Positions 7-59,573 of a stretch of DNA of 64,000 bases are shown here, one piece after another; position 1 is the stretch's first letter; the number at the start of each line of letters is the position of its first letter. The translations under genes were made by a program, and so were the position numbers. This stretch comes from Candidatus Moraniibacteriota bacterium (GTDB lineage: Bacteria; Patescibacteriota; Minisyncoccia; Moranbacterales; UBA2206): positions 41,828 through 105,827 of the forward strand of contig JAUXSK010000018.1 in assembly GCA_030679995.1 (NCBI GenBank). The letters run 5' to 3'. Below the pieces are notes generated by a model. That model ran no database searches, was not told the origin of the DNA, and saw only the letters and a program-made list of their open reading frames with translations.

Positions 7-1137
7 TTGGAATCATTTGAAATCGACGTTCCTATGGAAAACAGATTGGTCGGCAAGCTGTTTTTCGTGCCCTATGCTGCCAGAGATGACCTACGGAGAA
101 TTTTGAAACAGGCTTTGCTCGAAAACAGGCAAAGACTTGGTAACCTCACGCTGGGTCAATGGATTCAAGAGTTTGAAAAAACCTTCAACATCCACACTCG
201 GACAAAATCAGCTCCGGTTGAATTTGTTTCCCGCCATCCGCAAGCAATCCTACTCAATCCCATCGAAAGACGGAGACTAAAAGAAATCATCCATACTTAT
301 GACTATTTGCTGGTTTCAACCCTGCCAACCACCGAGCCTGAGCTTAGTGAAATGTTAGCCAATATGCCGGACACGGAAACATCCGAAAAACAAGACGGCT
401 CCGCAAGAGCAACCTACGCTCCGGAATCCTACAGAAAAAGCTTCTCTGGAAATTCGACATCCGCAGACACAGCAATCATTCCGCTAGACGAAATTTTGAA
501 ACAATTTCCCGAAATCGGCGAACAAATCATCACTTCCAACCGTATACAAATCCTGAGCTTTCCCGAACCGGCGCGCCCGTCCATCAAAAATTGGCTGGCT
601 GATTACACGTCCATCCTGGGCAACGAACCGCACGATTCCATAGCCCGGGGCAATTATTTGTTCCATGAAAAAAATACGCAGAACCTGAGTTCAACCAACA
701 GGAACAGATTGGCTTACATCCTGAAATCCTTCGATGAAAAAACCCCAATCACGATGGACAAGTCAAGCAAACAAATAATCTTCGACGATACGAACGAAAT
801 CCCGGAACCCAGAAAAAACGATCAGAATTCTCAAAACACTTCGACGCAAAAAACGCCAACCGCCAACTACGCGCCGCAAACCAACAAAATCAGCTTTTCT
901 TCCCCGCAGAAATTATCCTTTGAAAAAATAACACCCCCTGCCAAAACCGCCACCGTTCCGGCCAACCTTCCGACTGGAAACCTCGCCAGACCGGCACAAT
1001 TCGGAAATAACCAGCCCGGCAGGATGACCAACCAGCAACCCTACCGCATCACGCCGTCCGGCAGCCGGCAACAGATTGTCGATACGAAAGCGATGCCAAG
1101 AGTGTTGCCGAAGAATGTGGTAAACCTGCGCGATTAA
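7..1137 (+). CDS. Hypothetical protein with a Pro/Gln/Thr/Asn-rich low-complexity C-terminal half. The ORF opens at the window edge with TTG, so the true start may lie upstream or at the ATG at 34.
   Basis: Long uninterrupted ORF with coding-like composition and no recognisable catalytic motif. Confidence 0.4.
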   Translation: MESFEIDVPMENRLVGKLFFVPYAARDDLRRILKQALLENRQRLGNLTLGQWIQEFEKTFNIHTRTKSAPVEFVSRHPQAILLNPIERRRLKEIIHTYDYLLVSTLPTTEPELSEMLANMPDTETSEKQDGSARATYAPESYRKSFSGNSTSADTAIIPLDEILKQFPEIGEQIITSNRIQILSFPEPARPSIKNWLADYTSILGNEPHDSIARGNYLFHEKNTQNLSSTNRNRLAYILKSFDEKTPITMDKSSKQIIFDDTNEIPEPRKNDQNSQNTSTQKTPTANYAPQTNKISFSSPQKLSFEKITPPAKTATVPANLPTGNLARPAQFGNNQPGRMTNQQPYRITPSGSRQQIVDTKAMPRVLPKNVVNLRD

Positions 1138-1178
1138 ATTCAAAATCTAAAATTACAAATTCCAAATAAATCACAATG
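1138..1178. repeat. Left arm of the AT-rich palindromic intergenic repeat (copy R1). It ends in ...CCAAATAAATCACAATG, and that ATG is the start codon of the four-helix-bundle gene.
   Basis: Direct comparison with the full copies at 2020-2147 and 2835-2974 shows the shared AAATYCARAATYYAAAATTACAARYTCCAAATAAAT..CAATG left arm. Confidence 0.7.
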
Positions 1179-1538
1179 TCCGAAATCCAAAAAACAAAAC
1201 GATACGATTTAGAGGATAGAACGTTAGAGTTTGGAAAGAGAATTTTGAGATTAGCAAAGGCCTTGCCAAAAAACACAATAAATTTCAAGTTAATTGATCA
1301 ATTTGTCCGTTCCGGCACTTCAATGGGAGCAAACTACCGAGAAGCTAATGAAACTGAAACCAAAAAAGATTTTAAATTTAGAATGAGAATATGCAGAAAA
1401 GAAGGTAAAGAGACCATTTATTGGCTATATTTAATAGCCGAAGCTAATCCAGAATTTGAAGAAAGAATAAAACCACTTTTACAAGAAACGACTGAAATCG
1501 TAAAAATATTCGCCGCCATTCTTGTAAAATGTGAATGA
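1176..1538 (+). CDS. Four-helix-bundle protein of the 23S rRNA intervening-sequence protein family, nested between the two arms of repeat copy R1.
   Basis: 120 aa, all-helical and Lys/Glu-rich. The FGKRILRL...IDQFVRSGTSMGANYREA...YWLYLI pattern is typical of the family. Assignment is by recall, without an HMM search. Confidence 0.7.
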   Translation: MSEIQKTKRYDLEDRTLEFGKRILRLAKALPKNTINFKLIDQFVRSGTSMGANYREANETETKKDFKFRMRICRKEGKETIYWLYLIAEANPEFEERIKPLLQETTEIVKIFAAILVKCE

Positions 1539-1602
1539 TTTTGATGATTTTGAATTTAATATTTATTTGGAATTTGTAATTTTGTATTTGTAATTTAAAC
1601 AT
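1539..1602. repeat. Right arm of the palindromic repeat (copy R1), ending in TATG, which supplies the start codon of the downstream gene.
   Basis: ATTTATTTGGAATTTGTAATTTTGTATTTGTAATTTAAACATATG is the inverted complement of the left arm and matches the 3' ends of R2 and R3. Confidence 0.7.
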
Positions 1603-2019
1603 ATGGGTTTATTCAATGTTCCCCAATTCATCGACATCGAAGACAAGATTGTCGGACCGCTGACCGCCAAGCAATTGGGCTGGATGGGGGCGGCCGGAGT
1701 GATCCTTTTGGTGGCCTGGAGCATCCTGGACCTCACGGCATTCATCATCGCCGCTATCCTCACCAGCATCATTTTCGGCAGCCTGGCATTCTACCGTCCC
1801 AACGGACAGCCATTGGTCTATTTCATCTTTTCCGCCATCTCTTTCGCCTTCCGTCCTAAAATATATATCTGGAAAAGGGTGGCTGACAAGAGCGTACTCG
1901 GATTCACTCCCGCCCAAAAGACGAAAGCTGAAAAAAATGCTAAAATAAAGACATTGGCACCCAAGGAAGTTTCGGAACGGAAGATAGAAGATATTTCACA
2001 TTTATTGGACAGTAAATAA
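1603..2019 (+). CDS. PrgI/VirB3-like small two-TM T4SS component.
   Basis: The N-terminal NVPQFIDIEDKIVGPLTAKQL resembles the PrgI-family VP..I..E.K..G.LT.RQ motif, followed by two hydrophobic helices. It is ~138 aa and sits immediately upstream of virB4. Confidence 0.55.
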   Translation: MGLFNVPQFIDIEDKIVGPLTAKQLGWMGAAGVILLVAWSILDLTAFIIAAILTSIIFGSLAFYRPNGQPLVYFIFSAISFAFRPKIYIWKRVADKSVLGFTPAQKTKAEKNAKIKTLAPKEVSERKIEDISHLLDSK

Positions 2020-2147
2020 ATCCAAAAATTAAAATTACAAGTTCCAAATAAATTGCAATGGCCAAAATTCAAAATTGTTTTAAATTTTGAAAGTTGAGAT
2101 TTAGAATTTATTTGATATTTGTAATTTTGAATTTGTGATTTAAGTTT
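2020..2147. repeat. Full copy (R2) of the ~130-bp AT-rich palindromic intergenic element, filling the gap exactly from stop codon to start codon.
   Basis: The inverted arms AAAATTACAAGTTCCAAATAAATTGCAATG and ATTTATTTGATATTTGTAATTTT flank a central AAAATTCAAAATTGTTTTAAATTTTGAA palindrome. A 10-codon mini-ORF begins at the CAATG. Confidence 0.75.
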
Positions 2148-2834
2148 ATGGAATCATTGCACTCGGAAAAATTAGCCACCCAGACCAGCACCTCTGCTTC
2201 CCAGCAGTTTCTTGACGTGGCCGAAATCAAGGAAGGCGTCGTAGTGCTGAAAAACGGCTCTTTTCGGGCTGTCATAGCCGTATCGGCCATCAATTTCGAT
2301 TTGAAATCCACTGACGAACAGGAAGCGATCGTTGGACAATATCAAAACTTCCTCAATTCGCTGGATTTCCCGGTCCAAATCCTCATCAGTTCCCGCAAAC
2401 TCAACGTGGACAAATATATCGGTTTCATCGAAAAAAAGGAAAAACAACAGACCAACGAGCTCCTGAAACTGCAAATTTCAGAATACAAGAATTTTATCCA
2501 CCAGCTGGTTTCCGTTTCCAATATTATGGACAAGAATTTCTATATCGTTGTGCCATTTTCCCCGATTGAAAACCAAGAAAAGAGCTTTTTGAGCAATCTT
2601 TTCAATAGCCTCAATGCCAAAAAGAACATCCTGGAAAAAAGGGAGAATTTTGAAACCTACAAAAACCAGCTCTACCAACGGATCGACCACATTTCCGCCT
2701 CGCTGTCTGGCATCGGATTGCGTATCGCCCCGCTGGACACCCAGGAACTGGTCGAATTGCTCTACCAATCCTACAATCCGAACCTTTTCGCGGAAAGCAA
2801 GCTGGGAGATGTGAGCGCAATGGAACTCAAATAG
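2148..2834 (+). CDS. VirB4 N-terminal-domain-like protein, probably the detached N-terminal part of a Gram-positive-type VirB4.
   Basis: GVVVLKNGSFRAVIAVSAINFDLKSTDEQEAIVGQYQNFLNSLDFPVQILI resembles the N-terminal 'inf.L.s.eEq...f..fL..l.fp.Qi' segment of PrgJ/TraE-type VirB4 proteins. It has no TM segment and no Walker motifs. Confidence 0.45.
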   Translation: MESLHSEKLATQTSTSASQQFLDVAEIKEGVVVLKNGSFRAVIAVSAINFDLKSTDEQEAIVGQYQNFLNSLDFPVQILISSRKLNVDKYIGFIEKKEKQQTNELLKLQISEYKNFIHQLVSVSNIMDKNFYIVVPFSPIENQEKSFLSNLFNSLNAKKNILEKRENFETYKNQLYQRIDHISASLSGIGLRIAPLDTQELVELLYQSYNPNLFAESKLGDVSAMELK

Positions 2835-2974
2835 AAATCCAGAATCCAAAATTACAAGCTCCAAATAAATTACAATGTTCAAAATTAAAAAATTCAAAAC
2901 CGTTTTGAATTTTGAAAATTGTAATTTAAATTTTATTTGATATTTGTGATTTTGAATTTGTGATTTAAAATATT
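2835..2974. repeat. Full copy (R3) of the palindromic intergenic element, lying between the two virB4-like ORFs.
   Basis: Same arms and central palindrome as R2. It ends in TATTATG, which provides the start codon of the 604-aa virB4 ORF. Confidence 0.75.
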
Positions 2975-4789: not shown

Positions 4790-4943
4790 GTTTTTATGAT
4801 TTCAAGTTTCAATCTGCCAGCTGGTAGACCAAATTATTCCAAATCAAATCCAAAGATCAAATTAAAAAATAACTTTTGATATATAGGCTTTGAGCTTGAT
4901 TTGGAATAATTTGAGCCTTGAATAATTTGGATTTTAAAAAATT

Positions 4944-5471
4944 ATGTCCGACGAACAACAAAATCATGCGAATAACCTCAAAATGGCTCGCATCGGTTCT
5001 CTGAAAAATTCAGCCCAGAACATTAGAAAAAACGTCAAAGCCGCGGTTAATGTCGTTTCGCTTACGGCCTACCTCGAACCCTTTACGGACTGGCTGTTCG
5101 GCATCGCCCTTATCCTGGCCATCATCAAAGATATTTTTGATTTAGTCAACAACGCCCTTATTGCCGCTTTCGGCATCGGGATACCCCTGATCGTGGTTTT
5201 TACCGCCATCGTCTCACTCGCCATCGGATTCATAATGCTACTGACAGGCTCTTCCGGCAAAAGGAAAACCGCCAAGAAAATCGCCCAGGGCCTGCTCAAA
5301 CGATTTCTCCTGCTGGTTGGCGCCTCAGCAATCGAAGCGGTTCCCGCAATCAGCTTGTTGCCACTCGAATCACTCGTAGTCATCATCATATTTTGGCTGA
5401 CACTGGTTGAAAGGAAAAAAAACGCGGAAGCGCAAAAAGAACAAGCGGCAGCGATGGCCGCAGCCGCTTAA
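4944..5471 (+). CDS. Small multi-TM membrane protein, possibly a VirB6-like or accessory T4SS membrane component.
   Basis: Three to four hydrophobic helices, a basic N-terminus and an Ala-rich C-terminus. It follows virB4 on the same strand. Confidence 0.45.
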   Translation: MSDEQQNHANNLKMARIGSLKNSAQNIRKNVKAAVNVVSLTAYLEPFTDWLFGIALILAIIKDIFDLVNNALIAAFGIGIPLIVVFTAIVSLAIGFIMLLTGSSGKRKTAKKIAQGLLKRFLLLVGASAIEAVPAISLLPLESLVVIIIFWLTLVERKKNAEAQKEQAAAMAAAA

Positions 5472-30540: not shown

Positions 30541-31200
30541 CTAGAGTTTTTTAATAATATCTTTGAAACGGATATATTCGCTCACCCGCAATCCGGTCCA
30601 GCGGCCGATCATAACATTAAAGGGTATGGTGAATAGGATGACCCAGGGATAGGCGACCAAGAGTTTTATCAATGCTCCCCAACTGGCGATATAAAAGCCT
30701 GCTACGGAAATGACCAGGGTTTCAAACGCCAAGATGAGCGCGGTCTTATTGCCTTTTTCAATTTGCACGGCGACGAATTTTTCTACCAGCGTGATCATAA
30801 TCAAAATAGGGAAAATTGAAACGGAAGCCAGTCCGGTCCTGCGCAGGTTGCCGCCGAAAACAAGCAACAATAGGATTAAAACGGCAACGACGGTCAACAT
30901 TATGGCGACACGGGGAAGGTAGAGGAGCCGGAAGGGCTTGAGGATGAAGCGCATCAGCATCCCGATGAAAATGACCGCTAAAAAAATCGCCACGCCATAA
31001 CGCAATCCGTTAGTAGCCAGGAAGGCGAAGGTGATGATAAGGGGCGTGTAGATGCCAAAAGCTTTGATACCGACGACTTGGCGCAAGAAAGCGATCAAAG
31101 TCGCGATAATCGGCAACATCAGGATTAAGATGATCGTTTCAAAAGGCACGCCTTCGATAAGGAAAAAACGGATTATGGGGCTGATGTTCAAGTCCATCAA
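30541..31200 (-). CDS. 7TM membrane protein, first gene of the ATP-grasp cassette. It may be related to the 7TM modules linked to RimK-like ligases.
   Basis: Seven predicted hydrophobic helices in 219 aa. It is spaced 4 nt from the next gene on the same strand. Confidence 0.5.
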   Translation of the reverse strand: MMDLNISPIIRFFLIEGVPFETIILILMLPIIATLIAFLRQVVGIKAFGIYTPLIITFAFLATNGLRYGVAIFLAVIFIGMLMRFILKPFRLLYLPRVAIMLTVVAVLILLLLVFGGNLRRTGLASVSIFPILIMITLVEKFVAVQIEKGNKTALILAFETLVISVAGFYIASWGALIKLLVAYPWVILFTIPFNVMIGRWTGLRVSEYIRFKDIIKKL

Positions 31201-31287
31201 GTTTTTAAGTTTTTAAGTTTTTAATTTTTTAAATGATGTTCGGAGAACATCATTGCTGAAATTAAAAATCAAAAATTCGTTTAAAAA
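31201..31287. repeat. AT-rich intergenic element with (GTTTTTAA)x3 direct repeats and a palindrome.
   Basis: AAGTTTTTAAGTTTTTAAGTTTTTAATTTTTTAAATGATGTTCGGAGAACATCATT...AAAAATTAAAAATT. Confidence 0.5.
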
Positions 31288-31806
31288 TTAAAAATTGTTA
31301 ACTTTCCGGCTGTTTATGTGGCAAATGGCGATCGCTAAGGCGTCAGCCGTATCATCCGGCTTAGGCACGGCTTTCAGGCCTAAAATGCTTTTAACCATCA
31401 GCTGGACCTGCTTCTTTTCCGCTTTGCCGTAGCCTGTGACGGCTTGCTTCACTTGCAGTGGCGTGTAGCTAGCTATCTTGACACCTTTTTGCTCTAGTGT
31501 CAAGAGGATGCCGCCTCTGGATTGCCCGACACTGATGATAGTCTTTTTATTTTTGAAAAAGAATAGCTGTTCCACGGCCGCTTCGCGGGGATGGTATTTT
31601 TCAATGATATTGACAAGATCTTCGGATATCTCAGCCAAGCGGTTTTCCTCTGAATTGTTTTTGGGGGTGGAAATATGCCCGAAAGCCACCGGAACAAGAA
31701 TTCCGGCATTTTCTTCAATAATAGCCCAGCCGACCGTCGCCGTGCCTGGATCTATGCCCAAAACGCGTAACGGATGGCTTATGATTTGTTTTTTAGCTCC
31801 CCCCAT
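31288..31806 (-). CDS. ruvC: Holliday junction resolvase RuvC.
   Basis: LGIDPGTATVGWAII N-terminal RNase H-fold motif, 172 aa. Confidence 0.85.
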   Translation of the reverse strand: MGGAKKQIISHPLRVLGIDPGTATVGWAIIEENAGILVPVAFGHISTPKNNSEENRLAEISEDLVNIIEKYHPREAAVEQLFFFKNKKTIISVGQSRGGILLTLEQKGVKIASYTPLQVKQAVTGYGKAEKKQVQLMVKSILGLKAVPKPDDTADALAIAICHINSRKVNNF

Positions 31807-37106: not shown

Positions 37107-38195
37107 TCAGATTAATTTGTTAGCGTTTGAATATTTTATGCCCAGGTGGTTGTAGGCGTGCTCGGTCACCATGCGGCCGCGCGGAGTCCTGGTCATAAAG
37201 CCGATTTGCAAGAGATAGGGTTCGTAGACATCCTCGATCGTCTTTATTTCTTCGCTGGTTGCCGCGGCGATCGTGCTCAGGCCGACCGGTCCGCCGTTGA
37301 ATTTTTCGATAATGGTGCGCAAGATGTGGCGGTCGGCCGGTTCCAACCCGATCGGGTCGACGTCGATCATTTCCAGGGCTTCCTGCGCGATGGCGCTGTC
37401 CACGAATGGGTGGTTTTTGATCTGTGAAAAGTCGCGTACGCGTTTCAAAAGCCGGTTGGCGACGCGCGGGGTTTGGCGGGCGCAACTGGCGATTTTGGCT
37501 AGTCCGGTGTCGTGGATATCCACGCCTAGGATCCGGCTGGATCTTTTGATGATATCCTTCACTTCCTCGTTTCCATAGAATTCCAACCGGTAGGTAGCGC
37601 CGAAACGGTTACGCAACGGATTGGTGAGTGATCCAAGTTTGGTCGTGGCGCCGATAAGGGTGAATTTAGGCAGATCCAACTGGATGGTGCGGGCCGAGGG
37701 GCCTTTGCCGATGATGATATCCAATTTGAAATCTTCCATCGCCGGATAGAGGATTTCTTCGATGGATTTATTGAGCCGGTGGATTTCATCGATAAATAGG
37801 ATATCGCCATCTTGCAAATTAGTCAGGATCGAACCGAAATCGCCGACGCGCTCGATGGCCGGGCCGGAAGTGGTCTTAATGTTGACGCCCATTTCTTTGG
37901 CGATGATGTTGGCCAGAGTCGTTTTGCCTAGTCCAGCCGGGCCGTATAGCAGGATGTGTTCGATAGGCTCTTTACGTTTTTTGGCGGCGCGAAGCAGGAA
38001 ATCCAGATTTTTTTTGACTTTCTCCTGGCCGATATATTCGGAAAAACTCTGGGGACGCAAGGTGTTATCCAGATTATTGTCTTCAACGGTTGCTTTCGGC
38101 TGGGTAGCGGAGGCCAGATCATTGAATTGTTCGGATGAATCGACTAACACAAGTAGTTTTAAATTTTCAATTTTAAATTTAAAATGAAATCCCAA
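37107..38195 (-). CDS. ruvB: Holliday junction helicase RuvB. Its N-terminal ~25 codons are encoded by AT-rich repeat sequence, so the true start may be further downstream.
   Basis: Walker [15 protein letters not shown], Walker [11 protein letters not shown] and sensor motifs. Confidence 0.9.
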
Positions 38196-38285
38196 ATGTT
38201 TAAATTTTTAAACATTCAGCATTTAAAATTGATTTAAAATTTCAAATTTATAAATTTAAAATTATAGGCTTTAGCCTCATTGTAG
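38150..38285. repeat. AT-rich repeat/palindrome element related to the intergenic repeat family.
   Basis: TTTTAAATTTTCAATTTTAAATTTAAAATGAAATCCCAAATGTTTAAATTTTTAAACAT... containing the perfect palindrome ATGTTTAAATTTTTAAACAT. Confidence 0.5.
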
Positions 38286-39876: not shown

Positions 39877-42800
39877 TCACAGGTCAGTCACCCGTTCGAT
39901 TTCTTCGATGGTAGTTTCACCCTCCAAGACTTTCAATACGCCGTCTTGGGCCATCGTCAACATTCCGTTTTCCATAGCCTTGTCGGCCAATTCAGAAGTG
40001 ATGGCGCCTTGGGTAATAAGGGCTTGGATGTCTTTATCGACAATAAACACTTCACTGATGGTGGTGCGGCCTTTGTAGCCGAGGTAATTGCATTTTTCAC
40101 AGCCTTTGGGTTTGCAGATTTTTTCAATCGGCGGGATTTCCACGCCGGATTTCGGTGAAATCGTTTTGATAACCATAGTGATTTTTTCTTTTTCTTCGAG
40201 TGTCGGAATGGTTTTTTCTTTGCAGTCGCACAATTTGCGCACCAGGCGTTGTGCCATAAAAGCGTTTACGCCGGAAGCGATATCGGAAGGCGAGACGTCC
40301 ATATTGAGCATCCTCTGGACCGCTCCAGCCGCGTTGTTGGTGTGGATGGTAGAAAGGACCAAATGTCCGGTCAGCGCGGCTTGCACGGCGACTTCGGCGG
40401 TCTCGTTGTCGCGGATTTCACCGATCATCATAATGTCAGGATTCTGGCGCAAGAGCGAACGCAGGGCGGTCGGAAAAGTATAACCCTCTTTGTCGTTCAC
40501 GGGAGTTTGCAGCAGACCTTCGATTTGGTACTCGATCGGATCTTCTACGGTGATGATTTTCACTTCGGGTTTATTGAGGATATTCAAGAGACTGTAGAGG
40601 GTAGTGGTTTTGCCGGAACCGGTCGGACCGGTATTTAGGAAAACCCCGTTTGGCTTGGAAATTTCGTGCAAGATTTTTTTCTTGTTCTGTTCGCGGATGC
40701 CGAGCTTGTTGATGTCCAATTCTTGCGAAGCCTTGCTTAAAAGCCGCATTACTACGGTTTCCCCGTAGCCGCCGAGAATGATGGAGATACGCACGTCGAC
40801 CGATCTTTCCTTGACATCGGCAATCTCATCGGCGAAGCGGATTGAAAAACGGCTGTCGACGACGCCTTCGCGCACTTGGGATTTGACGCCGCTCAGGATT
40901 TTTATTTCACCGAGGATGGCCGGATATTCATTGAGCGGCAATGCCACGACGGTTTGCAGGATGCCGTCGATGCGGAACCGGAATTTCACATCGTTTCGTC
41001 CTGGCTCGATGTGGATGTCGCCGACCCCGAGCAATGAGGCGGCTGCGAAGATGATTTTGTTGATATCGGGGACTTTGGCGAGGTAGATGGCGGCTTGGAG
41101 TTTTTTGAAATCGGCGATGTTTTCTTGGGCTTTGGCAAAAGATTCCTCGTCGACCAGGATATTGCGGCCGAGCGATTGGGACATCAGCTTTTCATAGACG
41201 CCTTCCAAGAAATCACCTTCGCCCGTGACACGCTTCACTTCGTCGATGGAGGTTATGCCGCCCAAAGCTTTCAAAATTCCGTCTTGCAACATCGTGATCA
41301 TTCCGGCCTCCAGCGCGGCCACGGTCAATTCCGTTTCTCCAGCCAGATTGAGAATCAGGCTTTCCAAATCCTCATTGAGGGTGAGCACTTCAAAGATGCC
41401 GATGCGTCCCTTATAACCGAGATTATTGCATTTGGGGCAACCCTTCGGCCGGTAGAGCTTGGTGATCTCTTTGGGTACCTCGACTTTGGCTTTGGGGGAT
41501 ATGATGGATAATATTTTTTTGATGGAAGCGAGTGATTCTTTGGCTGGCACATATTCCTCCTTGCAATCGCACAATTTGCGCACTAATCTTTGGCCGATAA
41601 TCGCATTGACAGCGGGAACGATCAGCGAGGGCTTCACGCCCATCTCGATGAGGCGGGGGATGGTCCCGATGGCGTTGTTGGTATGGATGGTGGAAAGGAC
41701 CAAATGTCCGGTCAGCGCCGAGTTGACGGCGATGTCGGCTGTTTCTTCATCGCGGATTTCTCCCACTAGGATGACGTCCGGATCCTGCCTGACGATGGCG
41801 CGCAAACCGTTGGCGAAAGTGTAGCCACGGGATCTTTCAATCTGGGTCTGGGAAATGCCGGCGACTTCATATTCGATCGGATCTTCGATGGTGATGATTT
41901 TCGTTTCCGGATCGTTGAGTTTGTTGATGAAAGAATAGAGAGTGGTGGTTTTACCGGAGCCGGTCGGACCGGTCGTGAGAATCATACCGTTAGGCGCGGA
42001 AATCTGTTTTTGCAACTCCTCATAGGCCAGGCCTTGCAGTCCCAGACTTTCCACATTGACCTGGATGGAGGAGGGATCAAGAAGGCGCATAACCACACTT
42101 TCTCCGAAACTGCCTGGAATGATGGAAACGCGGATAGCGATTTTTTTAGCTTCGATGTTCACTTCGAAATTACCATCCTGGGCGATGTCGCGCAGGTTGA
42201 TTTTCATGCCCGACATCATTTTTATCCTGGAGATGATGGTTTTGAAGATATTCAGAGGCAAAAAAGCCACGTCATGCAAGACGCCGTCGATCCGGTAGCG
42301 CAGACGGAATTCTTTTTCCTGCGGTTCGATGTGGATATCGCTTGCGCCAAGTTTATAGGCGCCGCCCATGACGATATTCAGGACTTGGGTAGTCGGTAAC
42401 TCGTTAATCCGTTGTTTCAGGGTGATGAGGTCTTTCAGATATTCATCGAATTTTTCCAAATCGTCCCCGGTGAGGTTGACGCTTAGCTGGGAAAGGATGT
42501 CGGTGAAAACGATCTTTTTATATTTCTCTAGGACTTTATCCATATTATAGCGGGAAATCACGAAAATCTGCGTATCCCAACCCCTGGTTTCAGAAAGATT
42601 TTTCAAGTATCCGACAGTTTTCAATTGTATCGGATCAGGCGAGACTATCGTAGCTTTCTTGCCGATTTTCTGGATGATGGCGATATCATAGAGCCTTGCA
42701 TCTTCCTCGGATAGCAACTTCAGGCTTTCAGTGCTGATCGGGACGAGATTGGTGTCAAGATATGGCAGTCCGAGCGCCGCCGCGAAAGCTGCCGCCTGCT

Positions 42801-42912
42801 CTTCTTCGGATTGGTGGCGTAAATTGGACAGGACTTTGGCGGTGTCAGTTTCTTTTTGAGAAGCTCCGACAGTTCCCAAGGATGATGAGCGGTCCCTTAA
42901 TATTTTTATCAT
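39877..42912 (-). CDS. pilB: Covalently fused tandem GspE/PilB-family secretion ATPase with N1-N2-CTD-N2-CTD architecture.
   Basis: Two complete modules. Each has Walker A GPTGSGKTT (nt ~41944-41973 and ~40601-40633), Asp box, Walker B (DPDVILVGEIRDEETA and NPDIMMIGEIRDNETA), His box LTGHLVLSTIHTNNA and a tetracysteine CDCK...C(P/E)KCN. A GspE_N-like N1 domain lies in the first ~150 aa. Confidence 0.85.
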   Translation of the reverse strand: MIKILRDRSSSLGTVGASQKETDTAKVLSNLRHQSEEEQAAAFAAALGLPYLDTNLVPISTESLKLLSEEDARLYDIAIIQKIGKKATIVSPDPIQLKTVGYLKNLSETRGWDTQIFVISRYNMDKVLEKYKKIVFTDILSQLSVNLTGDDLEKFDEYLKDLITLKQRINELPTTQVLNIVMGGAYKLGASDIHIEPQEKEFRLRYRIDGVLHDVAFLPLNIFKTIISRIKMMSGMKINLRDIAQDGNFEVNIEAKKIAIRVSIIPGSFGESVVMRLLDPSSIQVNVESLGLQGLAYEELQKQISAPNGMILTTGPTGSGKTTTLYSFINKLNDPETKIITIEDPIEYEVAGISQTQIERSRGYTFANGLRAIVRQDPDVILVGEIRDEETADIAVNSALTGHLVLSTIHTNNAIGTIPRLIEMGVKPSLIVPAVNAIIGQRLVRKLCDCKEEYVPAKESLASIKKILSIISPKAKVEVPKEITKLYRPKGCPKCNNLGYKGRIGIFEVLTLNEDLESLILNLAGETELTVAALEAGMITMLQDGILKALGGITSIDEVKRVTGEGDFLEGVYEKLMSQSLGRNILVDEESFAKAQENIADFKKLQAAIYLAKVPDINKIIFAAASLLGVGDIHIEPGRNDVKFRFRIDGILQTVVALPLNEYPAILGEIKILSGVKSQVREGVVDSRFSIRFADEIADVKERSVDVRISIILGGYGETVVMRLLSKASQELDINKLGIREQNKKKILHEISKPNGVFLNTGPTGSGKTTTLYSLLNILNKPEVKIITVEDPIEYQIEGLLQTPVNDKEGYTFPTALRSLLRQNPDIMMIGEIRDNETAEVAVQAALTGHLVLSTIHTNNAAGAVQRMLNMDVSPSDIASGVNAFMAQRLVRKLCDCKEKTIPTLEEKEKITMVIKTISPKSGVEIPPIEKICKPKGCEKCNYLGYKGRTTISEVFIVDKDIQALITQGAITSELADKAMENGMLTMAQDGVLKVLEGETTIEEIERVTDL

Positions 42913-43075: not shown

Positions 43076-44356
43076 TCAATGGCTGATTTCTTTTATTTTC
43101 TTAGCGATCGATTCTCCAGCCTCAGCTATGTTGGCCATAGTTAGGTGTATCTCCAATGTGTCGCGCTTGAGCGTGCCGTTGAAAAACTGATTGATTCTTT
43201 TTAGCAATTCTTGGTCGGATGATTTCAAATCAGCTACGGTCGAAAGGGAAGTATCATTATAGAGAGCCATAAAAATTTTACCATCACTGTAGTTTTCCTG
43301 CAATTTCTCCAAAATCAGCGCGATATCGGTTTGGTTGGAACGGCTTTGCACGAAATCTTCCACACTGATGATTGTCCAAACCAATTTAGTCTGTTCATCC
43401 AGATTGAGATTTGACATGGCGCGCCCCCAAAGTTTCAGGATATGCAAAGGCTGGGTTTTGTACAGCCAGCGGATGATAGTCTGCTGGTCGGCTTTTTTGT
43501 CCATCAGGGCGGCGGCGGCCAAGAGGGATCGCGGAGTGGTGTTTTTCTTCTGGAAACTTTCCGTGGCGCTGATGATACCGGTCAGAAGACAGTCGGCGAT
43601 AGCCTTGTCGATCAGGTTCACATCCATATCATTGAAGGCGGCGCTTAGGATTTCGCTGCAAGATGAAGCGGTGGTATCGACCAGGTTGATTTGGCCGAAA
43701 TTGTCATTGTCGCTGCGGTGGTCGATATTGACGATCGGGACTTCGAAAAACAGATCCGGATTATTCTCATATATCTTGCCGAGCCGTTCCAAGTCCGGGC
43801 TGTCCAAAACAACGATCAGGTCATATTTGAATTTGGCCAGGATGAAAGAGAAATCACGCGGATTGAGCGCGCCTTTCTCAGGCGTCAGATAAATATTCAA
43901 TTTATCGGCTGTTTTTTCCGTGCGGATATCCCGGATCTTATTGTAGGCCGTGTCGAATGACAGTACGAAGTCGCGGGCGCCGGAAATTTCCGTGAGGATC
44001 CCCTCCGGCTTAGGCAGGAAATCATATTTGGCGGAGAGGTGGTTGGAAAAGGCGATCGTAGCCCGGACGCCTTTTTTTTGCAGAAAAAAATAGAGCGCCC
44101 AAGCGCTGCCGACCGCATCTCCGCTGGGATTTTCCGGAATCAAAACCAGTACATCTTGGGATTTGTCTATGAATTGCTTGAATTGTTCCTGGGGTGACAG
44201 TGTCATAAGTTGATAGTTATTTTTAAGCAGTATTACAAGATAACAGGATAAAAAGCGCGTGTCAAATAAAGCCCTCTTTTCTTTTTGGCGGATTACCGCT
44301 AACATATGTATGTTATGGAAAAAGAATTTATCACTGGAAATTTCAAAGAAACGCAA
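43076..44356 (-). CDS. nrnA: DHH/DHHA1-family phosphoesterase (NrnA-like nanoRNase / pAp phosphatase).
   Basis: DHH-family layout with VNIDHRSDNDNFG (a DHR variant of the DHH motif) and a C-terminal DHHA1-like GGGH region. Confidence 0.6.
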   Translation of the reverse strand: MRFFEISSDKFFFHNIHMLAVIRQKEKRALFDTRFLSCYLVILLKNNYQLMTLSPQEQFKQFIDKSQDVLVLIPENPSGDAVGSAWALYFFLQKKGVRATIAFSNHLSAKYDFLPKPEGILTEISGARDFVLSFDTAYNKIRDIRTEKTADKLNIYLTPEKGALNPRDFSFILAKFKYDLIVVLDSPDLERLGKIYENNPDLFFEVPIVNIDHRSDNDNFGQINLVDTTASSCSEILSAAFNDMDVNLIDKAIADCLLTGIISATESFQKKNTTPRSLLAAAALMDKKADQQTIIRWLYKTQPLHILKLWGRAMSNLNLDEQTKLVWTIISVEDFVQSRSNQTDIALILEKLQENYSDGKIFMALYNDTSLSTVADLKSSDQELLKRINQFFNGTLKRDTLEIHLTMANIAEAGESIAKKIKEISH

Positions 44357-44854
44357 AAATTAGGCAAGTCCCTGGCTTTAGAGATTGGAAACGAGCTCCA
44401 AGGTCCAGCCTTGTCTTCAATAGCGCGATCTCAAAGTCCGATTCTGGAAGGCGCCTTCGTGTTTTGTCTGGAAGGCGATTTGGGCGCCGGAAAAACCACG
44501 TTCACGCAGGGGGTATTGAAAGGATTGGGAGCTGAGGGGCCATACACGAGCCCGACCTTTCTCATAATGAAAGAATATAATTTGCAAGATACAAAATACA
44601 AGAAACAAGAAACAAAAAAATTCAAAATTCAAAATTCAAAATTCAAAATTCGGAACATATATCATATTGACGCGTATCGGGTTGGAGCTGAAGATGTTTT
44701 GAGTCTAGGCTGGGAAGAGATGATCGCCGATCCGAAAAACGTCGTAATCGTGGAATGGCCGGAAAAAATCGCACGGATATTACCGGAAAATTCAATCAGG
44801 ATAAAATTTGAGTGGCTGGATGAGAATCAGAGGAAAATAACCTTTGGAAAATAA
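44306..44854 (+). CDS. tsaE: tRNA threonylcarbamoyladenosine biosynthesis ATPase TsaE (YjeE), carrying an in-frame ~20-aa Lys-rich insertion derived from a repeat element.
   Basis: Walker A LEGDLGAGKTTFTQG, then SPTFLIMKEY and IYHIDAYRV. The insertion NLQDTKYKKQETKKFKIQNSKFKIRN lies between the conserved Y and H. The start may be at 44315. Confidence 0.75.
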   Translation: MYVMEKEFITGNFKETQKLGKSLALEIGNELQGPALSSIARSQSPILEGAFVFCLEGDLGAGKTTFTQGVLKGLGAEGPYTSPTFLIMKEYNLQDTKYKKQETKKFKIQNSKFKIRNIYHIDAYRVGAEDVLSLGWEEMIADPKNVVIVEWPEKIARILPENSIRIKFEWLDENQRKITFGK

Positions 44855-52074: not shown

Positions 52075-52944
52075 ATGCCGGAATTGCCTGAGGTCCAGAC
52101 GGTCGTCTCGGATCTGAATGAAAAAATCAAAGGCGACACCATCGTCGATTTTTGGAGTGGGTGGCCGAAAGCGATCAAGGGAAAGTCCTTGGCTTTGTTC
52201 ACGAAAGAAATCGCGGAGCGGAAAATCTTGGGCGCGCGCCGGATCGGGAAAAACATCTTCATCGATCTGTCGGGTGGGAAAACTTTATATTTGCATTTGA
52301 AAATGACAGGACACTTACTGGTAAAAGTTCAAAATCCAAAATCCAAAGCCGAGGATTATTTCGCGGACAGGGTCAATCAATATATCAGGCACAGCTGGAC
52401 GTTAAAAACTAAAAACCATAAACTAAAAACCATTGAGTTTTCGGATATGCGGAAGTTCGCCAAGATCGTTTTGGATGATACGGACAGAATCGCCCAGTTG
52501 CCGGAAATCGAAGCGTTGGGGGTTGACGCGATGGATCCTGAATTCACTTGGCAAAAATTCGATGAAATCCTGGATAAGAAAAAAAACGCGCCCATCGGGA
52601 TCCTGCTGATGGATCAGTCTTTGATCGCCGGTATCGGCAACATCTATCGCAGTGAAATTCTTTTTGAAGCCGGCATCTTGCCGACTAGAAAAGCGGCGGA
52701 TATCGCAAGGGAGGAAAGGAAAAAACTCTTTCGCTCGATCGGGAAAATTTTGCGGAAAGCCGTCAAATTGCGGGGAACTTCCGATTCCGATTACCGTGAC
52801 ACCTCGGGAGCGCCGGGCGGTTACCAGAAGGTTTTGCAAGTCTATCGCAAAGCTGGTGAAAAATGTCAAAGATGTGATACAATAATCAAGCGGGCGGTTT
52901 TGGGGCAGAGAAGCGTTTTTTATTGCCCGGACTGCCAGAAGTGA
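52075..52944 (+). CDS. mutM: Formamidopyrimidine-DNA glycosylase (Fpg/MutM).
   Basis: N-terminal MPELPEVQT catalytic Pro2/Glu3, an H2TH region and a C-terminal zinc finger CQRCDTII...YYCPDCQ. Confidence 0.85.
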   Translation: MPELPEVQTVVSDLNEKIKGDTIVDFWSGWPKAIKGKSLALFTKEIAERKILGARRIGKNIFIDLSGGKTLYLHLKMTGHLLVKVQNPKSKAEDYFADRVNQYIRHSWTLKTKNHKLKTIEFSDMRKFAKIVLDDTDRIAQLPEIEALGVDAMDPEFTWQKFDEILDKKKNAPIGILLMDQSLIAGIGNIYRSEILFEAGILPTRKAADIAREERKKLFRSIGKILRKAVKLRGTSDSDYRDTSGAPGGYQKVLQVYRKAGEKCQRCDTIIKRAVLGQRSVFYCPDCQK

Positions 52945-57532: not shown

Positions 57533-58183
57533 GTGGTTGCAATCGTCAGGAGGGGCTGGGTAGATGTCGATGTCTTCAAGTTTGCCCGTAAGAATGATAA
57601 ACCTTGGACGCTTTTGGCTTTGAGATACGCCAAGTTATATTTCCAGGGGATGTATCGCAAGGACGGCCGGGATGCTTTCGTGCATGCGTACAAAGTCGCC
57701 CAAATCTTGATTTACTTCGGTGTTTGGGATGACGAGGTCATAGCTGCGGGTATTTTGCATGATATCCTGGAAGACGTATCTTATGCGGCTTTGGATGTTT
57801 TGAGTCAAGTTTTTCCGCAAAGAACGGTCTCGCTGGTTGTCATTGTGACAAAATTCGAAGGGGTTATATTAGCTGAGTATTTCCATAATATCAGCCTTAA
57901 TCCTTTCACTGTCCTGATCAAGTTGGCAGACAGGTTACATAACTTGCGCAATATGATCAAAAATCTGGATAAGAAACATTGTTTCAATCTGGAAAAGCTT
58001 CGCGAGCAATCACAGGAGACGAACGATTTCGTTGTCCGCCTGCCGTATGCGGCGATTGTCCGTGAGAAAACCAAGGCATCAGGATGCCCGCCGGAATATT
58101 TTTCCGCTATGGCGGCTATGGCAGGTGAATTGCGTGAAGCGGTCCATCTGGCTAAAGTTATTTTGGCTGGGCTGGTCATCTGA
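57533..58183 (+). CDS. HD-domain protein resembling the RelA/SpoT-type (p)ppGpp hydrolase domain (a small alarmone hydrolase-like protein).
   Basis: HAYKVAQILIYFGVWDDEVIAAGILHDILEDV matches the H...A..L.....D...I.AALLHDvvED HD motif. There is no synthetase domain. Confidence 0.55.
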   Translation: MVAIVRRGWVDVDVFKFARKNDKPWTLLALRYAKLYFQGMYRKDGRDAFVHAYKVAQILIYFGVWDDEVIAAGILHDILEDVSYAALDVLSQVFPQRTVSLVVIVTKFEGVILAEYFHNISLNPFTVLIKLADRLHNLRNMIKNLDKKHCFNLEKLREQSQETNDFVVRLPYAAIVREKTKASGCPPEYFSAMAAMAGELREAVHLAKVILAGLVI

Positions 58184-58238
58184 GGGGGTCTGCTTGCATT
58201 TCGCAACCGGACCCTTTTTCTATGTTATAATTCAAAAT

Positions 58239-59573
58239 ATGAAAAGATTGGTTCCGCAAAAATTGAAAAATATTTATCATCTATTCCAAGCCATCTTGGC
58301 GAATATTCGGTATGGCTTTCCGACTAGGAAGATGAAAACCATCGGCATCACCGGCACGGACGGCAAAACTACGACCTGTCAGATGGTAGCTAAGATTTTG
58401 GAAGAGGCTGGTAAGAAAGTGGCGATGGCTTCCACCATAAATTTCCGCATCAACGGCGAGGAAGAAAAAAACCTTTCCCACTTCACGACTTTGTCGGCTT
58501 TCGCGGTGCAGAAATTCGCGAGGCGGGCGGTGGACGCGGGCTGTGAATATCTGGTTTTGGAAACTTCTTCGCATTCACTCGATCAATACCGGGTGTGGGG
58601 AGTGGATTATAAAACGGCGGTCATTACTAACGTGACGCGCGAGCATTTGGACTATCACCAGACGATGGAAAAATACCGCCAAGCCAAGGCGAGGCTTTTT
58701 AAAAAAGTCCAAGTAGCAATCGTGAATCTGGATATGGAAAAACCGGAGGAATATTTCGACCGTGGCGCGGGTAACATTTTGGGATATGGCTTGAAAATCC
58801 AAAATCCAAAATTACAAATTTCAAATAAATGCAAAATTCAAAATCAAAAATTCAAAACCGTCATTGCTCAAAATATTGAATTAGGAATTGATAAATCAGC
58901 TTTTTCAGTCGGTGATCAAAAGTTTATTTTAAATTTGATCGGGGATTTCAATATTGAAAACGCGCTGGCGGCTATCAGCGTCGGGGTTTCGGAAAATATC
59001 GATCTGGCGACTTGCGCCAGGGCCTTGGAGAAAATCACCGGCGTGCCGGGACGGATGGAATATGTGCCGAATGGCAGGGGATTGAATATTCTGGTGGATT
59101 TCGCTTTGACGCCGATCGCTCTGGAAAAACTATACTCGGTGCTTTTGAAAATAAAAAAACCGGAAGCGCGGATCATTGCGGTTTTTGGATCGTGCGGGGA
59201 ACGCGATCGCGGCAAGCGGCCGATTATGGGCGCAGTCGTTTCCAAATATGCTGATTTCGTGATTGTGACCGATGACGAGCCTTATCATGAAAATCCAGTC
59301 CAGATAATAAATGAAATATTTTATGGCGTTATCGGACAGAGGATGGCAGACGAGATCCCGAATCAAGATCCAAACAAAAAAATAGAAGGTGAAAATTGCT
59401 GGAGAATAACGGGCAGAAGGGAAGCGATCAGAAAGGCTTTGGAAATAGCCAAACCCGAGGATATTATCGCCGTCACCGGCATGGGAGCGGAAGAATCGAT
59501 GATAGTGGGGGATGAAAAAATCCCGTGGAACGACCGGCAGGTGATTTTGGAGGAGTTAAAAAAGATAAAATAA
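58239..59573 (+). CDS. murE: Mur ligase family protein (MurE-like UDP-MurNAc-tripeptide ligase) with an in-frame ~24-aa repeat-derived insertion.
   Basis: GITGTDGKTTT P-loop and the VLETSSHSL...VITNVTREHLDYH central domain. The start is called at MKRLVPQKL rather than the ORF-track start at 58032, which overlaps the upstream gene. The insertion LKIQNPKLQISNKCKIQNQKFKTV lies at nt ~58792-58863. Confidence 0.8.
   Translation: MKRLVPQKLKNIYHLFQAILANIRYGFPTRKMKTIGITGTDGKTTTCQMVAKILEEAGKKVAMASTINFRINGEEEKNLSHFTTLSAFAVQKFARRAVDAGCEYLVLETSSHSLDQYRVWGVDYKTAVITNVTREHLDYHQTMEKYRQAKARLFKKVQVAIVNLDMEKPEEYFDRGAGNILGYGLKIQNPKLQISNKCKIQNQKFKTVIAQNIELGIDKSAFSVGDQKFILNLIGDFNIENALAAISVGVSENIDLATCARALEKITGVPGRMEYVPNGRGLNILVDFALTPIALEKLYSVLLKIKKPEARIIAVFGSCGERDRGKRPIMGAVVSKYADFVIVTDDEPYHENPVQIINEIFYGVIGQRMADEIPNQDPNKKIEGENCWRITGRREAIRKALEIAKPEDIIAVTGMGAEESMIVGDEKIPWNDRQVILEELKKIK

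Follow-up and report, generated by a model that had tools for sequence, protein, structure and literature searches.

A probable palindromic-element arm in the TsaE linker of a Moranbacteria genome and its relation to intervening-sequence-like PF05635 cassettes

TsaE is the ATPase subunit of the threonylcarbamoyl-transfer complex that makes N6-threonylcarbamoyladenosine (t6A); this synthesis is among the core functions, and in Escherichia coli the tsaE gene is essential. We analyzed the tsaE gene of a Candidatus Moraniibacteriota bacterium in a stretch of 64,000 nucleotides (assembly GCA_030679995.1, contig JAUXSK010000018.1, positions 41,828 to 105,827), referred to here as the window, which has a GC content of 44.5%. 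Between two conserved motifs this gene carries an in-frame linker encoded by AT-rich DNA and tandem heptamers, which we interpret, with a probability of about 0.7, as a tolerated arm of a selfish element in a disordered β-hairpin loop, comparable to the palindromic elements of Rickettsia and derived from a cassette that resembles the intervening sequences (IVS) of 23S rRNA genes. In this interpretation the linker would reproduce, in frame and on the sense strand, the A-rich arm of a palindromic element with heptamer periodicity; the element family is common in the Candidate Phyla Radiation (CPR). The full-length form of the element would be an IVS-like cassette with a PF05635 gene between two arms, and the shorter forms would be intergenic hairpins without an open reading frame (ORF). 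The arm would have landed in a hairpin turn predicted to be disordered and would persist there as a passenger that spares the ATPase core, with selection letting no copies pass other than single A-rich arms that are sense-oriented and in the one frame without stops. Later change would be mainly replication slippage of 7-nt units, yielding the five-copy allele of the window and the two-copy allele of a strain that is 99% identical. We infer that the insert is selfish or neutral.

The ORF at 44306-44854 (+ strand) was identified as TsaE by its match to Pfam PF02367 (E = 3.8e-31, 108 bits versus a gathering cutoff of 26.6). The coding sequence annotated by NCBI, 44315..44854 (+), begins with MEKEF at 44315, an in-frame ATG being present upstream at 44306, and identical proteins are deposited as MDP1620170.1 and MDP1833865.1. 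Alignment with orthologues indicated that the invariant motifs are all retained, namely Walker A GxxGxGKT, SPTF and YHxDxYR. An AlphaFold2 model based on 43 sequences had a predicted local distance difference test score (pLDDT) of 81.9 and a predicted template-modelling score of 0.80, and outside the insert it superposes on YjeE/TsaE (1htw_A) with a target-normalised template-modelling score of 0.80 and a root-mean-square deviation of 2.4 Å (Foldseek).

The linker, NLQDTKYKKQETKKFKIQNSKFKIRN, comprises the 26 residues N92-N117 (44579..44656, + strand) and sits exactly between SPTFLIMKEY and IYHIDAYRV. Its GC content is 14-24%, and the value for positions 44550-44649 drops to 0.24 compared with 0.44-0.57 on both sides. 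In the solved TsaE structures of T. maritima (6n9a_E) and B. subtilis (YdiB, 5np9) only 2-4 residues occupy this place versus 23-24 in the window, an excess of 20-21 residues. Across 82 genome loci, which are numbered here with the prefix L, the spacer from SPTF to HxDxYR is 34 residues in the window and 12-17 in most non-CPR genomes, while in CPR genomes it ranges from a minimum of 11 (L009, L013) to lengths of 20-53 in many cases. An initial annotation, made from the sequence of the window, had described an in-frame insertion of about 20 extra residues in TsaE, and the solved structures together with the short-spacer CPR orthologues bear out both the insertion and its size. That annotation had also reported five tandem copies of TTCAAAA, which is the other register of the perfect (AAAATTC)x5 run that we place at 44617..44651 (+), encoding KFKIQNSKFKI; Tandem Repeats Finder describes this run as period 7 with 5.0 copies, 100% matches and a score of 70, and a looser period-7 array of 8.9 copies spans 44585-44649.

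The structural context of the linker is that of a loop. In the AlphaFold2 model, residues 92-116 form a coil between strands 88-91 and 117-122, with a pLDDT below 50 at residues 98-110. The insert is accordingly modelled as a disordered segment that is predicted to occupy the turn of the β-hairpin formed by the strands that carry SPTF and YHxDxYR. This turn should face away from the nucleotide-binding motifs, at the far end of the sheet, because of which the ATPase core would be unaffected, and it would presumably also lie at a distance from the TsaD interface.

The element family to which we relate the linker consists of AT-rich palindromes of ~125 nt, whose arms follow the pattern AAATCCAAAATTACAAxTTCCAAATAAATxxCAATGxxCAAAATTCAAAA. 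Four kinds of copy are found in the window: palindromes without an ORF, a split copy with a gene, a single arm within a gene, and heptamer tracts. The arm consensus is complex and non-periodic (…AAAATTACAAATTCCAAATAAAT…), and its core is AAATAAAT. A full cassette at 1132..1600 (+) comprises a left arm (1132-1202), a PF05635 gene (1176-1538) and a right arm (1536-1600). The gene encodes a four-helix-bundle protein of 120 amino acids belonging to the family named '23S rRNA intervening-sequence protein' (S23p), and its ATG lies within the left arm, where it forms part of the arm's CAATG. In a cluster of type IV secretion genes, two gaps between genes are taken up by ORF-less palindromes. One, at 2016..2144, occupies the space that separates a PrgI-family gene from the next gene (arms E = 1.8e-11 and 2e-9) and starts at the stop codon of the upstream gene; the other, at 2833..2968, lies upstream of a VirB4/TraG-like ATPase gene (arms E = 4e-11 and 2.8e-10) and begins immediately past the stop codon of its upstream gene. 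Both are predicted to form stable RNA hairpins (-35.5 kcal/mol, z = -6.2, and -33.5 kcal/mol, z = -5.9, respectively), which could act as RNase III sites within operons. The CAATG is retained in the ORF-less palindromes together with the initial codons of the PF05635 gene, and for this reason they look like internally deleted cassettes. A scan of the whole window at Rfam gathering thresholds gave 0 matches, and no rRNA was found in the window. With a probe of three heptamers (up to 3 mismatches) we found 10 sites in the window versus 0.03 expected from shuffles; apart from the TsaE run, the sites are located within repeat-family copies, within a variant hairpin rich in AT (38157) or within heptamer tracts of Fpg and MurE.

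Three further AT-rich intergenic inverted repeats with a periodicity of 7-8 nt occur at 4828-4945, 31182-31311 and 38134-38285. They cannot be clearly assigned to the main family, and the last of them is conserved in L002, a syntenic relative described below.

To relate the linker to this family we used an arm profile whose only sources were the arms flanking the PF05635 gene and the ORF-less palindromes, and which was run with nhmmer over 1.29 Mb of loci. The profile matched the TsaE linkers of five orthologues (L090, E = 6.7e-9; L018, 5.9e-8; L007, 1.4e-7; L005, 5e-5; L091, 2.7e-4). All five arms are near full length (model positions 3-6 to 65-71), and all five start two codons past the conserved Tyr. 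In L090 and L091 a clean arm is combined with the (AAAATTC)4-5 run of the window; L090 also has the 3' junction of the window, CG[GC]AAC-ATxTATCA, and the run of L091 is followed by ATCAAC. Alignment shows the window linker to be colinear with the arms in the TsaE genes of L090 and L091, with the arm in MurE and with the flanks of the PF05635 gene. When the window linker was aligned end-to-end with the MurE arm, the Smith-Waterman score was 58 versus 29.8±5.2 for dinucleotide shuffles, with 0/1000 shuffles scoring as high. Percent identity between inserts is uninformative, as shuffled A-rich sequences align at 78%, and alignment scores and hidden Markov model E-values were used instead. Judged by these alignments, the window insert very probably consists of a degenerate outer arm and, after it, inner heptamers that have expanded anew. 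The earlier remark that the insert resembles the central part of the intergenic repeat family holds by way of L090 and L091, through which the heptamer run corresponds to the loop-proximal part of the palindromes.

The periodicity of the linker raises the question of a microsatellite that arose in place as slippage lengthened a native A-rich turn, the likeness to the elements being convergence through slippage bias. The whole linker is a period-7 array, all of the changes seen in it are indels of heptamer units, and slippage of the polymerase has been proposed as the cause of heptamer over-representation in bacteria (PMC4692102). CPR loci are also rich in period-7 arrays, whose units are many and unrelated: in 1.3 Mb of sequence, mostly CPR loci, 171 of about 300 tandem arrays of three or more copies have period 7, and roughly half of those with period 7 are located within long ORFs. 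Moreover, the window linker itself scores only weakly against the arm profiles (E = 0.18 for the first of them, an nhmmer profile of the window's own arms, and 0.011 in a small TsaE-only database), and homology is therefore argued through the orthologues. It is these orthologues that make growth in place decidedly unlikely, because at the same codon position they carry the complex non-periodic arm consensus, with E-values down to 7e-9, L090 among them shares the 3' junction of the window, and the arm consensus is itself a dispersed repeat found beside unrelated genes in different lineages.

The units of period-7 arrays in the loci L003-L082 are diverse and include AATTTCC, AATTTTC, TTACGTC, CGATCCA and CAAGAAT (for example L014, 14751-14815, and L012, 14198-15342). 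A perfect (TGCTCCA)x9.3 array within the same set encodes LHAPCSM three times.

Copies of the arm are also found, or suspected, in other genes of the window. The MurE gene of the window, a Mur ligase (ORF 58032-59573), has an in-frame arm copy, KIQNPKLQISNKCKIQNQKFKT, at 58793..58861 (+) in the middle domain of the ligase, which was matched at E = 2.2e-9 over model positions 5-74 by an nhmmer model built without the MurE copy. The initial annotation had counted TsaE as a second essential gene with an in-frame element, and the MurE arm agrees with that count. When MurE is aligned to PDB chains with HMMER, no clean gap appears at the arm, and over the aligned range the window protein is 26-32 amino acids longer than bacterial MurE chains; the MurE arm is a likely but not proven insertion. 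Fpg/MutM (ORF 52075-52944) contains two in-frame heptamer tracts, at 52328-52348 (KVQNPKSK) and 52403-52433 (LKTKNHKLKT), and these A-rich tracts of the N-terminal domain may be arm remnants.

The coding capacity of the element offers an explanation for the form that these copies take. Of the three frames of each left arm a single one is open (IQNPKLQxPNK…), and every frame of the T-rich right arms is interrupted by stops, such that 1/6 reading frames of the element is open. In-gene copies are consequently arm-only and sense-only: the in-gene arm matches (7/7) are in sense orientation and in the single open frame, giving peptides of the form [EK]IxNxKxQIxNK… followed by KFKIQNSK. The in-gene arms have no RNA structure (0 and -2.65 kcal/mol, which does not exceed the stability of shuffled sequences), and they would therefore, in contrast to the complete palindromes, not give a stem of the RNase III type.

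Close relatives of the window provide evidence for length change within the linker. The nearest database protein, P0001, is the window TsaE minus exactly QNSKFKI. The contig that encodes it, L001 (GCA_034366505.1), is 99.04% identical to the window over 5838 aligned columns, from which it differs by 35 substitutions and a single indel of 21 nt that corresponds to three heptamers of the run (44617..44637, +, with arbitrary placement within the run). A second relative, L002 (GCA_030679985.1), is 86.6% identical over 9.6 kb and is without two 21-nt blocks, both inside the linker: the one missing in L001 and a further block of ACAAxAx-type heptamers at 44584..44604 (+) that encodes approximately DTKYKKQ; all other in-gene indels of that alignment are 4 nt or less. 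The shortest linker of this clade keeps ETKEFKIRN. The number of AAAATTC copies is 5 in the window and in L093, a contig of GCA_030680195.1 that is 100% identical over 1340 nt, 2 in L001, L002 and L092, about 5 in L090 and 4 in L091. Between the window and the syntenic L001 and L002, linker length always differs by multiples of three units. Because TsaE has to keep its reading frame, length changes survive only in steps of three units (21 nt, 7 amino acids), and the pattern is consistent with slippage by arbitrary numbers of units and subsequent loss of the out-of-frame products; slippage is the presumed mechanism of the 21-nt indels. A potential hotspot had been suggested from the run alone, and the L001 and L002 alignments now reveal a hotspot of indels. 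Two scans of metagenome collections for the TsaE junction, aimed at further copy-number alleles, returned no match.

These alleles also bear on two other explanations. A perfect five-copy repeat of a non-triplet unit, inside a coding sequence and with a copy number that differs between strains, is what would be expected of a contingency locus in which the heptamer run switches TsaE on and off by frameshifting. This form of phase variation is highly improbable, since the three alleles are all in frame and differ by 3n units, no out-of-frame allele was seen among them, and the gene concerned serves the core function of t6A synthesis and is essential in E. coli. Metagenome-assembled genomes (MAGs) can mis-assemble repeats, and an AT-rich repeat could in principle have been mis-joined inside the gene; such an assembly or annotation artefact is effectively refuted by the length of the run (35 nt, less than a typical read), by the identical five-copy allele in the GCA_030680195.1 contig and by homologous in-frame inserts in dozens of independent assemblies.

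TsaE proteins of Moranbacteria have inserts of variable length at this site, with peptides such as FPISNFQFPNK, KSQNPKSKIQN and KFKIQNSKFKI. The relatedness of the inserts across orthologues exceeds that of shuffled sequences (mean alignment score 33.7 versus 13.2±3.3). The initial annotation had named orthologues with a native linker of similar length and composition as the finding that would refute its reading. Linkers of similar length and composition do occur within Moranbacteria; those linkers are, however, arm copies themselves, and orthologues with short linkers exist. The comparison suggests that the insertion is lineage-wide, either old or recurrent, rather than private to this genome, with its repeat origin left standing. 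In other lineages the same loop is filled by unrelated repeat-like peptides, including HDPRSTIH, PPYEGGGWG and KGSTFKIPKVEPL. For 8/47 loci the best DNA match of the TsaE linker lies within its own flank of 10-20 kb; the linker of L006 matches 30/30 nt of an (AATTTCC)n tract in another gene, and that of L019 has a 30-nt match to an AT-rich repeat tract at a distance of about 4.5 kb. These flank matches suggest within-genome homogenisation or repeated insertion.

Long unrelated insertions in the TsaE loop were also observed in L074 (10130-10318; 53 residues), a MAG labelled Verrucomicrobia, and in L054 (10187-10342; 42 residues), from Giovannonibacteria; one of the two is outside Moranbacteria, and the pair suggests that the hairpin turn tolerates insertions in general. 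A second place in TsaE where insertions vary lies between LALEI and the Walker A strand (44384-44452, residues ~27-49), with low pLDDT at residues 42-45. Many orthologues have no insert there, and in others different repeat-like peptides are present, for example GGPASTRDESTRGG and RKGSTFETKKETPRSNLG. A KGSTF… peptide like those of this second site is found in the hairpin loop of other TsaEs as well.

The persistence of the insert in many Moranbacteria, where it remains recognisable despite nearly saturated synonymous sites in the core, invites the alternative of a functional, lineage-specific basic loop that was recruited, for instance, for contact with tRNA or with TsaD/TsaB, and whose length tunes that function. 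The segment is strongly basic, and it is never lost in the clade of the window, L001 and L002, where ETKEFKIRN is kept even in the shortest form. We regard this alternative as rather unlikely, given a loop length of 11 to 53 residues with no conserved residue within the insert, the unrelated repeat-like peptides that fill the same loop in other lineages, the predicted disorder of the segment, and the presence of the arm in the unrelated MurE, with possible arm remnants in Fpg.

Several further observations weigh against interpreting the linker as a tolerated element arm. No target-site duplication was seen at the inspected junctions and no transposase was found, the only associated ORF being that of PF05635. 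No mechanism is known for copying a single arm, and selection accounts for the tolerance of such copies, not for the copying. The linker and the arm are both of low complexity and quasi-periodic, so that shuffle-based significance is inflated, and the copy-number variation rests on three assembled alleles, not on read-level data. The basic loop might have a function. Third codon positions of the core are near saturation (31-61% identical), yet the arms are near consensus, which simple neutral decay does not explain and which points to gene conversion, re-insertion or selection; we take this difference between insert and synonymous sites as suggestive only and not as proof of gene conversion. 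The identical 5' junction of all arm-bearing orthologues, for its part, suggests one old insertion.

The cassette itself is more widely distributed than the window. Contexts were obtained by protein searches followed by contig look-ups, and homologues of the PF05635 protein with 78-93% amino acid identity were found in many CPR assemblies. TsaE orthologues beyond the two syntenic close relatives are only about 50-75% identical, and by this measure the PF05635 gene is much more conserved than TsaE. In 5/5 inspected loci the same arms bracket the PF05635 gene, with inverted-repeat alignment scores of 56-65; these are the window, L083 (ABC/FtsX), L085, L087 (ruvA/ruvB) and L088 (cca/dnaN). Thus placed, the cassettes adjoin unrelated gene pairs in different CPR lineages, and from its arms and contexts the element looks like a mobile IVS-like cassette outside rRNA. 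A second PF05635 paralogue in L083 has the order stop codon, (AAAATCC)x3, ATG. No PF05635 homologues were found by tblastn among the 82 TsaE loci, and a scan of viral contigs for the arm core gave no match. We know of no function assigned to S23p since it came to attention in the 1990s. A wider and more tentative proposal, which we consider possible but on the doubtful side, is that of a CPR-wide mobile system in which the PF05635 cassette would spread between lineages, leave ORF-less hairpins behind and seed single arms, in the one open frame, into surface loops of TsaE, MurE, Fpg and other housekeeping proteins, with gene conversion or re-insertion homogenising the arms and S23p acting as a factor for mobility or maintenance.

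These results are relevant to how small genomes retain repeats. CPR (Patescibacteria) genomes are very small, yet a selfish-looking repeat is kept here in a gene for t6A synthesis and in MurE. For annotators and for structure prediction the case is a warning that low-complexity K/N/Q/I/S peptides in CPR proteins may be repeat arms and not functional domains. The heptamer run is a built-in mutational liability, as two of three slippage sizes destroy the gene, and for this reason it is a natural marker for strain typing. The TsaE insert alone is a modest curiosity and the element family is the more valuable lead, as it ties the PF05635 protein to a cassette between unrelated gene pairs and makes the idea of IVS mobility testable by comparative genomics.

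Elsewhere in the window, a T2SSE-type ATPase gene (39877-42912; 1011 amino acids) has an internal duplication, 40331-40662 versus 41672-42003, with an offset of 1341 nt and an identity of 74-75%, which corresponds to two tandem ATPase modules.

Comparison with known systems places the elements between several described classes. Miniature inverted-repeat transposable elements are defined by terminal inverted repeats with target-site duplications and by descent from an insertion sequence with a transposase; inverted arms are present here, while no obvious target-site duplication at the inspected junctions and no transposase were seen. TIGR-Tas arrays were considered and set aside, as the elements here are single palindromes and not arrays. 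Like contingency loci, the TsaE run is a perfect tandem repeat inside an ORF, with a unit not divisible by three and with copy-number polymorphism; unlike them it is known only from in-frame (3n-unit) alleles, lies in a core housekeeping gene and gives no sign of on/off switching. Dispersed heptamer repeats, such as the short tandemly repeated repetitive sequences of cyanobacteria and the GGGNATC repeats of Xanthomonas and Nostoc, are reported to occur less often than expected within coding regions (PMC4692102). The present elements resemble them as dispersed tandem 7-nt units, mostly between co-oriented genes, that differ in copy number among close relatives (PMC4692102), but in the present case the heptamers belong to a larger palindromic element and recur in frame within genes.

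The closest likeness of the cassette is to the IVS of 23S rRNA genes. In Coxiella, the IVS stem encloses an S23p ORF, upstream of which GACAGAT is repeated 2-3 times in a strain-variable number, and mobility of such intervening sequences has long been hypothesised (PMC4990558). PF05635 ORFs are also already known from rRNA insertions in CPR (PMC11270868). As in the IVS of Coxiella, Leptospira and Salmonella, the PF05635 ORF of the window and of the four other loci lies in the loop of a long stem of terminal inverted repeats, and, as with the Coxiella heptamers, AAAATYC-type heptamers directly precede the start codon in the cassettes. Unlike 23S rRNA IVS, the cassettes and their ORF-less derivatives are situated between protein-coding genes and not in helix 25/45 of 23S rRNA, and single arms are embedded in coding sequences; the TsaE insert itself is such a single arm and does not have the PF05635-bearing architecture of an IVS. 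We found no description in the open-access literature of such cassettes between protein-coding genes or of their arms inside coding sequences.

For the TsaE insert the nearest counterpart is provided by the Rickettsia palindromic elements, which occur in frame within many unrelated genes and contribute a peptide at positions compatible with the fold (PMC10969869). Common to both are short dispersed palindromic repeats in a reduced genome, inserted in frame in unrelated housekeeping genes. The CPR elements have another host and another sequence, and, the Rickettsia elements having been compared by description, they are to be seen as an analogue and not as a member of that group. A further difference is that genes here contain a single arm, not the whole palindrome, which is absent from genes because the right arm has stops in all frames, and the TsaE and MurE copies are without a hairpin. 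The arms also consist of slipping 7-nt units, and there is a coding full-length form, the PF05635 cassette. To our knowledge, no equivalent protein-coding full-length form exists for the Rickettsia elements. In-frame insertion of selfish palindromic elements is thus already known as a kind of event, and the link to an IVS-like PF05635 cassette is plausible; together they would make the TsaE linker part of a second, independent case of the Rickettsia-type phenomenon, here with an identifiable protein-coding parent element.

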